A stretch of 32,848 bases of DNA, taken from Escherichia coli (GTDB taxonomy: Bacteria; Pseudomonadota; Gammaproteobacteria; Enterobacterales; Enterobacteriaceae). Below are positions 1 through 390 of this stretch, piece by piece. A program made the position numbers and the translations under genes. A model generated the notes under the pieces. That model was given only the letters and a program-made list of their open reading frames with translations. It searched no databases and was not told the DNA's origin. The stretch lies in assembly GCF_003334315.1 (NCBI RefSeq), contig NZ_QOWR01000053.1, one strand, 5' to 3'. Every line of letters starts with the position of its first letter. Positions within the stretch are counted from its first letter, which is position 1.

Positions 1-375
1 GACGAACAGTGGGGCTACGTCGGTGCTAAATCACGTCAGCGCTGGCTGTTTTACGCGTATGACAGGATACGGAGGACGGTTGTGGCGCACGTCTTCGGTG
101 AACGCACTCTGGCCACACTGGAGCGTCTTCTGAGCCTGCTGTCGGCCTTTGAGGTCGTGGTATGGATGACGGATGGCTGGCCGCTGTATGAATCCCGCCT
201 GAAGGGAAAGCTGCACGTAATCAGCAAGCGATATACGCAGCGAATTGAGCGGCATAACCTGAATCTGAGGCAGCACCTGGCACGGCTGGGACGGAAGTCG
301 CTGTCGTTCTCAAAATCGGTGGAGCTGCATGACAAAGTCATCGGGCATTATCTGAACATAAAACACTATCAGTAA
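1..375 (+). CDS. insB: IS1 transposase InsB, C-terminal part (5' end outside window); divergent IS1 isoform
   Basis: Frame 1 from position 1 and the 82..375 ORF read ...[98 protein letters not shown], recognisably InsB with several substitutions relative to the K-12 IS1 copy as I recall it. Confidence 0.9.
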
Positions 376-390
376 GTTGGAGTCATTACC
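1..390 (+). mobile_element. IS1 insertion sequence, 3' portion (element continues off the left edge); right terminus ...aaacactatcagtaagttggagtcattacc ends at 390
   Basis: Translation from position 1 matches the InsB transposase C-terminal region ([21 protein letters not shown]...[10 protein letters not shown]); the last ~30 bp match the IS1 terminal inverted repeat from memory. Confidence 0.9.

Follow-up and report, generated by a model that had tools for sequence, protein, structure and literature searches.

The window analysed here (32,848 bp) is an entire contig, QOWR01000053.1, of the Escherichia coli draft assembly GCA_003334315.1, and carries a piece of IS1 at each end, both in the same orientation (Table 1). 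The deposited contig encodes the 93-residue wzx-IS1 fusion product, and its first 10,650 bases agree exactly with those of the window. Reading from the left IS1 copy to the right one, the contig carries the start of wzx, galF, all of the colanic-acid cluster (wcaM to wza), yegH, asmA, dcd, udk, and the start of dgcE.

Table 1. Features at and between the two IS1-bounded ends of the window
Feature	Position	Strand	Content	Basis or remark
IS1 3' half	1..390	+	IS1 positions 379-768	Gap-free alignment to K-12 IS1 copies; base 1 is the contig end
InsB C-terminal part	1..375	+	124 codons (InsB residues 44-167) and TAA stop (373-375)	Translation, NF033558, PF03400
IS1 right inverted repeat	368..390	+	23 bp	Repeat comparison
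wzx, truncated O-antigen flippase gene	369..650	-	93-residue fusion ORF: about 87 native codons, then sequence of the IS1 right repeat	ORF list
JUMPstart element	873-911	-	Upstream of wzx	
algC RNA	10624-10673	-	In or beside the cpsB-cpsG intergenic region	Rfam, above gathering score
naRNA4	10760-10830	+	In or beside the cpsB-cpsG intergenic region	Rfam, above gathering score
Second JUMPstart element	25239-25277	-	Upstream of wza	Rfam, above gathering score
dgcE (yegE), cut after codon 501 by IS1	31269..32777	+	502-residue product with MASE1 and PAS domains only	Stop codon supplied by the IS1 left repeat
IS1 5' end	32773..32848	+	IS1 positions 1-76	Alignment; 3' side cut by the contig end
IS1 left inverted repeat	32773-32795	+	Begins GGTAATGGTGCC	Repeat comparison

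Both pieces carry the hallmarks of IS1: imperfect terminal repeats of about 23 bp that begin GGT(A/G)ATG and, in the InsB part, a transposase with the IS1-type DDE domain. The InsB fragment scores 127.4 bits against the NCBIfam IS1 family transposase profile NF033558 (cut-off 100; profile positions 101-199), and the 124-residue product also matches Pfam PF03400. At the other end, the insA GTG start codon lies at 32828 and the InsA start reads (V)ASISIS. Counted from the sequences, 20 of 23 positions pair between the left and right inverted repeats here, versus 18 of 23 in K-12 IS1A; the better pairing stems from an A at position 4 of the left repeat and a C rather than a T at position 19 of the right repeat, the latter being a G at IS1 position 750. 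A search of the whole window found no further IS1 homology, and the central 302 bp of the element (IS1 positions 77-378, including the A6C frameshift site) fall outside the contig.

The left IS1 terminus is exactly base 390 of the window and is precise, since the match to wzx, which is intact in NZ_CM151356.1, starts at base 391, directly after the IS1 end. The same wzx-IS1 junction occurs in an ENA metagenome contig (ERZ4258480, NODE_586095) that has one difference from the window in 836 bases. In NZ_CM151356.1 the O-antigen cluster is intact (a wzy-like gene, glycosyltransferases, and gmd-fcl-gmm-manC-manB); the corresponding genes are off the contig here, and the strain may lack O antigen. 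We also see IS1 near galF in many E. coli genomes, at positions other than the one found here, and IS1 seems to strike repeatedly where galF meets the O-antigen cluster.

At the right junction, homology to K-12 dgcE stops at base 32772. The truncated DgcE matches positions 1-502 of the 1,111 in the diguanylate cyclase profile NF007298, the GGDEF/EAL half of the protein having been removed by the right IS1. The exact truncated product is found in Logan run SRR1122540 and in four other samples, so that the dgcE junction is represented in five Logan runs. Because both junctions recur in independent samples, the two insertions are fixed in a sampled lineage.

Other strains carry IS1 in dgcE independently (NZ_CM141450.1 and NZ_CP062871.1). 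The insertion in LF4-1 lies 143 bp downstream of the window site and has a 9-bp duplication (AACGAGGCA), and in Res13-Lact-PEA14-20 an IS1B in dgcE is directly followed by yegJ, indicating an adjacent deletion. The gene may thus be a recurrent IS1 target.

Given that the window is a complete draft contig, its end pieces are the points at which the assembler broke at a repeat, not truncated elements, and their lengths of 390 and 76 bases are a product of assembly rather than biology. No consistent scenario for k-mer size or for other resident IS1 types emerged from these two lengths.

We compared both pieces with all six annotated IS1 copies of MG1655 (NC_000913) and with PGAP-labelled copies. 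The original prediction had been that both ends look like the same non-K-12 IS1 isoform family, on the strength of substitutions in InsB, a variant left repeat, and the InsA N-terminus. All of the window strings that it quoted are present (the InsB motif, the left repeat GGTAATGGTGCC, and ASISIS), and the K-12 strings that it gave for comparison are correct for IS1A-E: IS1A in NC_000913 has MATLGRLMSLLSPFDVVIW, GGTGATGCTGCC, and ASVSIS, and its left-repeat string is also given as ggtgatgctgcc, as that prediction had it. The divergence is borne out at both ends by alignment, neither segment being identical to the common IS1A-E copies. The left piece differs from IS1A, B, C, D, and E at 21 of 390 positions each (94.6% identity) and from IS1F at 17 (95.6%). 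The right piece has 8 mismatches in 76 positions to IS1A, B, C, and E (89.5%), 9 to IS1D (88.2%), and 7 to IS1F. The window pieces therefore lie outside the near identity that the K-12 copies IS1A-E show among themselves (at least 98.8%), and they are not nearly identical to IS1F across the compared length either. At the protein level, InsB differs from that of IS1A by nine amino acids, all within residues 22-54 of the 124-residue fragment, and InsA by a single residue, V4I (counting the GTG start as residue 1).

The label "non-K-12" holds only in part: the window differs from IS1A-E, but the InsB motif singled out as divergent is exactly the sequence of K-12 IS1F. The IS1F copy (NC_000913 4518472-4519239) is identical to the window over IS1 positions 379-541, including this motif, and has the same bases at repeat position 4 (A) and at position 750 (G), but it departs from the window at 17 sites between 542 and 714 and at 7 sites within 1-76, and its insB carries a premature stop (W to stop) right after the motif, where the window copy retains W. 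Conversely, IS1A and IS1E share the length register and repeat architecture of the window copy and are identical to it over positions 539-749, but differ at 20 positions in 393-538, at position 750, and at 8 positions in 1-76.

The left piece is accordingly a mosaic, identical to IS1F over positions 379-541, to IS1A over 542-749, and IS1F-type again at 750. Within positions 379-768, IS1A and IS1F differ at 38 sites; in the window the first 20 of these (396-538) are F-type, the following 17 (542-714) A-type, and the last (750) F-type, and a runs test on these sites gives a probability of 1.3e-9 for three or fewer runs. Over the full element, the K-12 copies IS1F and IS1A differ by 73 mismatches, the same number reported in a study that recognizes four K-12 IS1 types (PMC12428005).

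Searches of finished sequences place the window variant among known elements. None of the 5,426 complete E. coli genomes searched contains the exact left 390 bp (best match 99.7%); matches at 100% come from two plasmids, the Salmonella Senftenberg IncC plasmid pNDM-SAL and pNDM1_EC14653 of Enterobacter cloacae. It is slightly odd that a chromosomal E. coli copy should have a haplotype otherwise found only in two plasmids of other genera. The IS1 of pNDM-SAL (NZ_KP742988.1; 768 bp, with the record origin inside the element) matches the left piece at 390/390 and the right piece at 76/76 positions, and that of pNDM1_EC14653 at 390/390 and 75/76. The pNDM-SAL element has A6C at position 307, and its identity is about 94.5% with IS1A and about 94.1% with IS1F. 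It shares with the window its repeats, InsA N-terminus, and InsB C-terminus (transposase WP_223216367.1), but resides in another host and replicon, where it adjoins blaCMY-4, and the comparison covers the element outside positions 77-378. The exact isoform is thus already known and deposited in public databases.

Other deposited copies match one end of the window better than the other. The last 74 bp (32775-32848) has exact matches in 884 records of complete E. coli genomes. One source of such matches is an IS1 type common in clinical E. coli, found on the chromosome and a plasmid of strain 4/4 and on many IncF plasmids, whose first 76 bp are exactly those of the window and whose transposase is the same protein as in the pNDM-SAL type, WP_223216367.1. 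Unlike the window, its 3' part has 10 mismatches, all of them synonymous, in positions 609-678, where its bases are IS1F-type. The IS1 of EF7-18-51 has a single mismatch in the 3' part but an IS1A-type 5' end. Similarly, copies labelled by PGAP as "IS1-like element IS1X2" (WP_223400810.1; for example NZ_CP115840.1 and NZ_CP072806.1), which serve here as proxies for the ISfinder IS1X2 reference, are 99.2% and 98.7% identical to the window over the 3' part (3 and 5 mismatches) and have the same switch at 538/542, but differ in their IS1A-type 5' end (GGTGATGCTGCC, ASVSIS; 8 mismatches in positions 1-76); their full-length identity with the pNDM-SAL type is 96.7-97.1%.

The full-length pNDM-SAL-type IS1 is likewise a patchwork, in which blocks alternate over the 73 sites (37 A-type, 34 F-type, and 2 private); different patchworks are seen in other IS1 copies in the databases, and the 538/542 switch is common to many finished copies, including EF7-18-51, pKPT698, and the PGAP-labelled "IS1X2". 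Such a patchwork of IS1A-like and IS1F-like segments with a few private sites would be simplest to account for if IS1 lineages had recombined or undergone gene conversion with one another. Ohtsubo and colleagues and, in 1992, Lawrence, Ochman and Hartl reportedly described both variation and recombination in IS1 isoforms. IS1 is a reticulate swarm of variants, of which the window variant is one already-deposited member.

A Shigella origin of the isoform was considered, since the exact left end occurs in none of the complete E. coli genomes and the best match to the colanic-acid region reaches only about 97-98% identity. It was rejected: no Shigella is among the top plasmid matches listed (100% to 98.7%), and the colanic-acid genes are all intact ORFs. 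Over the colanic-acid region itself (window 391-25000), even the closest of the 5,426 complete E. coli genomes agrees at no more than about 97-98%; finished genomes give poor coverage of this lineage, or of this stretch, which is prone to recombination.

Our preferred reading (probability about 0.85) is that the window is a short-read draft contig ending in two same-orientation IS1 insertions, in wzx and dgcE, with both end pieces identical to one known variant, the pNDM-SAL type. In IS1, the terminal repeats are bound by InsA or by InsAB', the product of a -1 frameshift at A6C; transposition generates duplications of 8-9 bp and can also produce adjacent deletions. Each junction falls exactly at an intact IS1 terminus, as would be expected from transposition by the InsAB' transposase, the C-terminal part of InsB is open, and we infer that both genomic copies would be full length, of the same isoform, and each a simple insertion. 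If so, TGAAAAAAG (or 8 bp of it) would be duplicated beside the left repeat of the wzx copy, and CGCCCTTTA beside the right repeat of the dgcE copy. For either junction the alternative would be an IS1-adjacent deletion or rearrangement, the far flanks lying outside the contig.

Whether the two ends represent one isoform bears on the question, raised in the original prediction, of whether the copies are recent duplicates of each other. The two pieces cover non-overlapping parts of IS1 (379-768 and 1-76), and so the window itself offers no direct comparison between them. The claim that both ends are the same isoform is made possible by the single deposited element that is identical to both of them, the pNDM-SAL IS1, and it is weakened by the lack of overlap and by the loose linkage of the two ends in the database, where the exact 5' end is usually joined to a 3' part differing from the window at 10 sites. 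On balance we find a shared isoform plausible and, judging from these matches, rather probable.

It is possible, at distinctly lower odds, that the two ends are two different isoforms in one genome, for example a wzx copy of the "IS1X2" or pNDM-SAL type and a dgcE copy of the common strain 4/4 type. The non-overlapping pieces would allow this, and the database supplies suitable partners: the exact right end is common (884 records) and in strain 4/4 is joined to a 3' part that differs from the window at 10 sites, numerous further records contain a copy matching at this same level of 98.7%, and near-exact left ends with one mismatch accompany an IS1A-type 5' end in EF7-18-51, E8, and pKPT698. 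Moreover, IS1 copies that are 96-98% identical have been reported to coexist in one E. coli genome (PMC10569738). Against two isoforms, both database copies that match the left end at 100% have a GGTAATGGTGCC-type 5' end, and copies with that 5' end share the window's G at position 750, though Ec2452 pairs G750 with an IS1A-type 5' end.

The shared transposase WP_223216367.1, which PGAP names only "IS1 family transposase", occurs at different sites in strain 4/4 (where it splits a LysR-family gene), pNDM-SAL, and pNDM1_EC14653, and given these varied insertion sites across replicons the protein variant is likely active. One could go further and propose that the pNDM-SAL-type IS1 is a recent recombinant now actively spreading, with better-paired repeats (20/23 vs 18/23) and an intact IS1F-type InsB segment, that in this E. 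coli lineage it has knocked out both O-antigen export through wzx and the master diguanylate cyclase DgcE, and that the direct repeats have left the colanic-acid cluster poised for IS1-mediated deletion or amplification; we regard this extended scenario as improbable.

A chimeric contig end, in which the left 390 bp would be a path through collapsed IS1A-like and IS1F-like copies and correspond to no single molecule in the strain, is conceivable but unlikely, with the odds heavily against it. A draft contig ending in a multi-copy repeat, the clean switch from IS1F-identical to IS1A-identical sequence at 538/542, and the absence of the exact haplotype from the 5,426 complete E. coli genomes would all fit such an artefact. 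However, the same 390-bp string, as well as the whole 742 bp tested, is present in two independently finished plasmids, the 538/542 switch is found in many finished copies, and the junction, including the G at position 750, is reproduced in the ENA metagenome contig.

Finally, that the direct IS1 repeats and the intervening 32.4 kb form a composite, Tn9-like unit that can be moved, deleted, or amplified as a block is very improbable: the copies are in direct orientation with intact outer-facing termini, IS1-associated large deletions are documented in E. coli (PMC10569738), and the dgcE IS1 of Res13-Lact-PEA14-20 has an adjacent deletion, but the order galF-wca-wza-yegH-asmA-dcd-udk-dgcE is the native chromosomal one, the truncated edge genes are native neighbours, no second location of the segment was found, and two independent in-place insertions account for all observations.

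The feature as a whole is an ordinary one, an IS1 variant that is already known and lies where a draft contig ends. IS1 fragments in such positions mark assembly breaks and should not be taken for truncated or paired elements, and typing IS1 isoforms by short terminal fragments cannot be relied on, the family being mosaic and its 5' and 3' ends only loosely linked. The direct orientation of the two copies would permit homologous deletion or amplification of the 32.4-kb segment, with no sign of either having occurred. For the organism, the two insertions predict loss of the O-antigen flippase and of the catalytic half of DgcE, and loss of wzx and dgcE could affect serotyping and biofilm phenotype.
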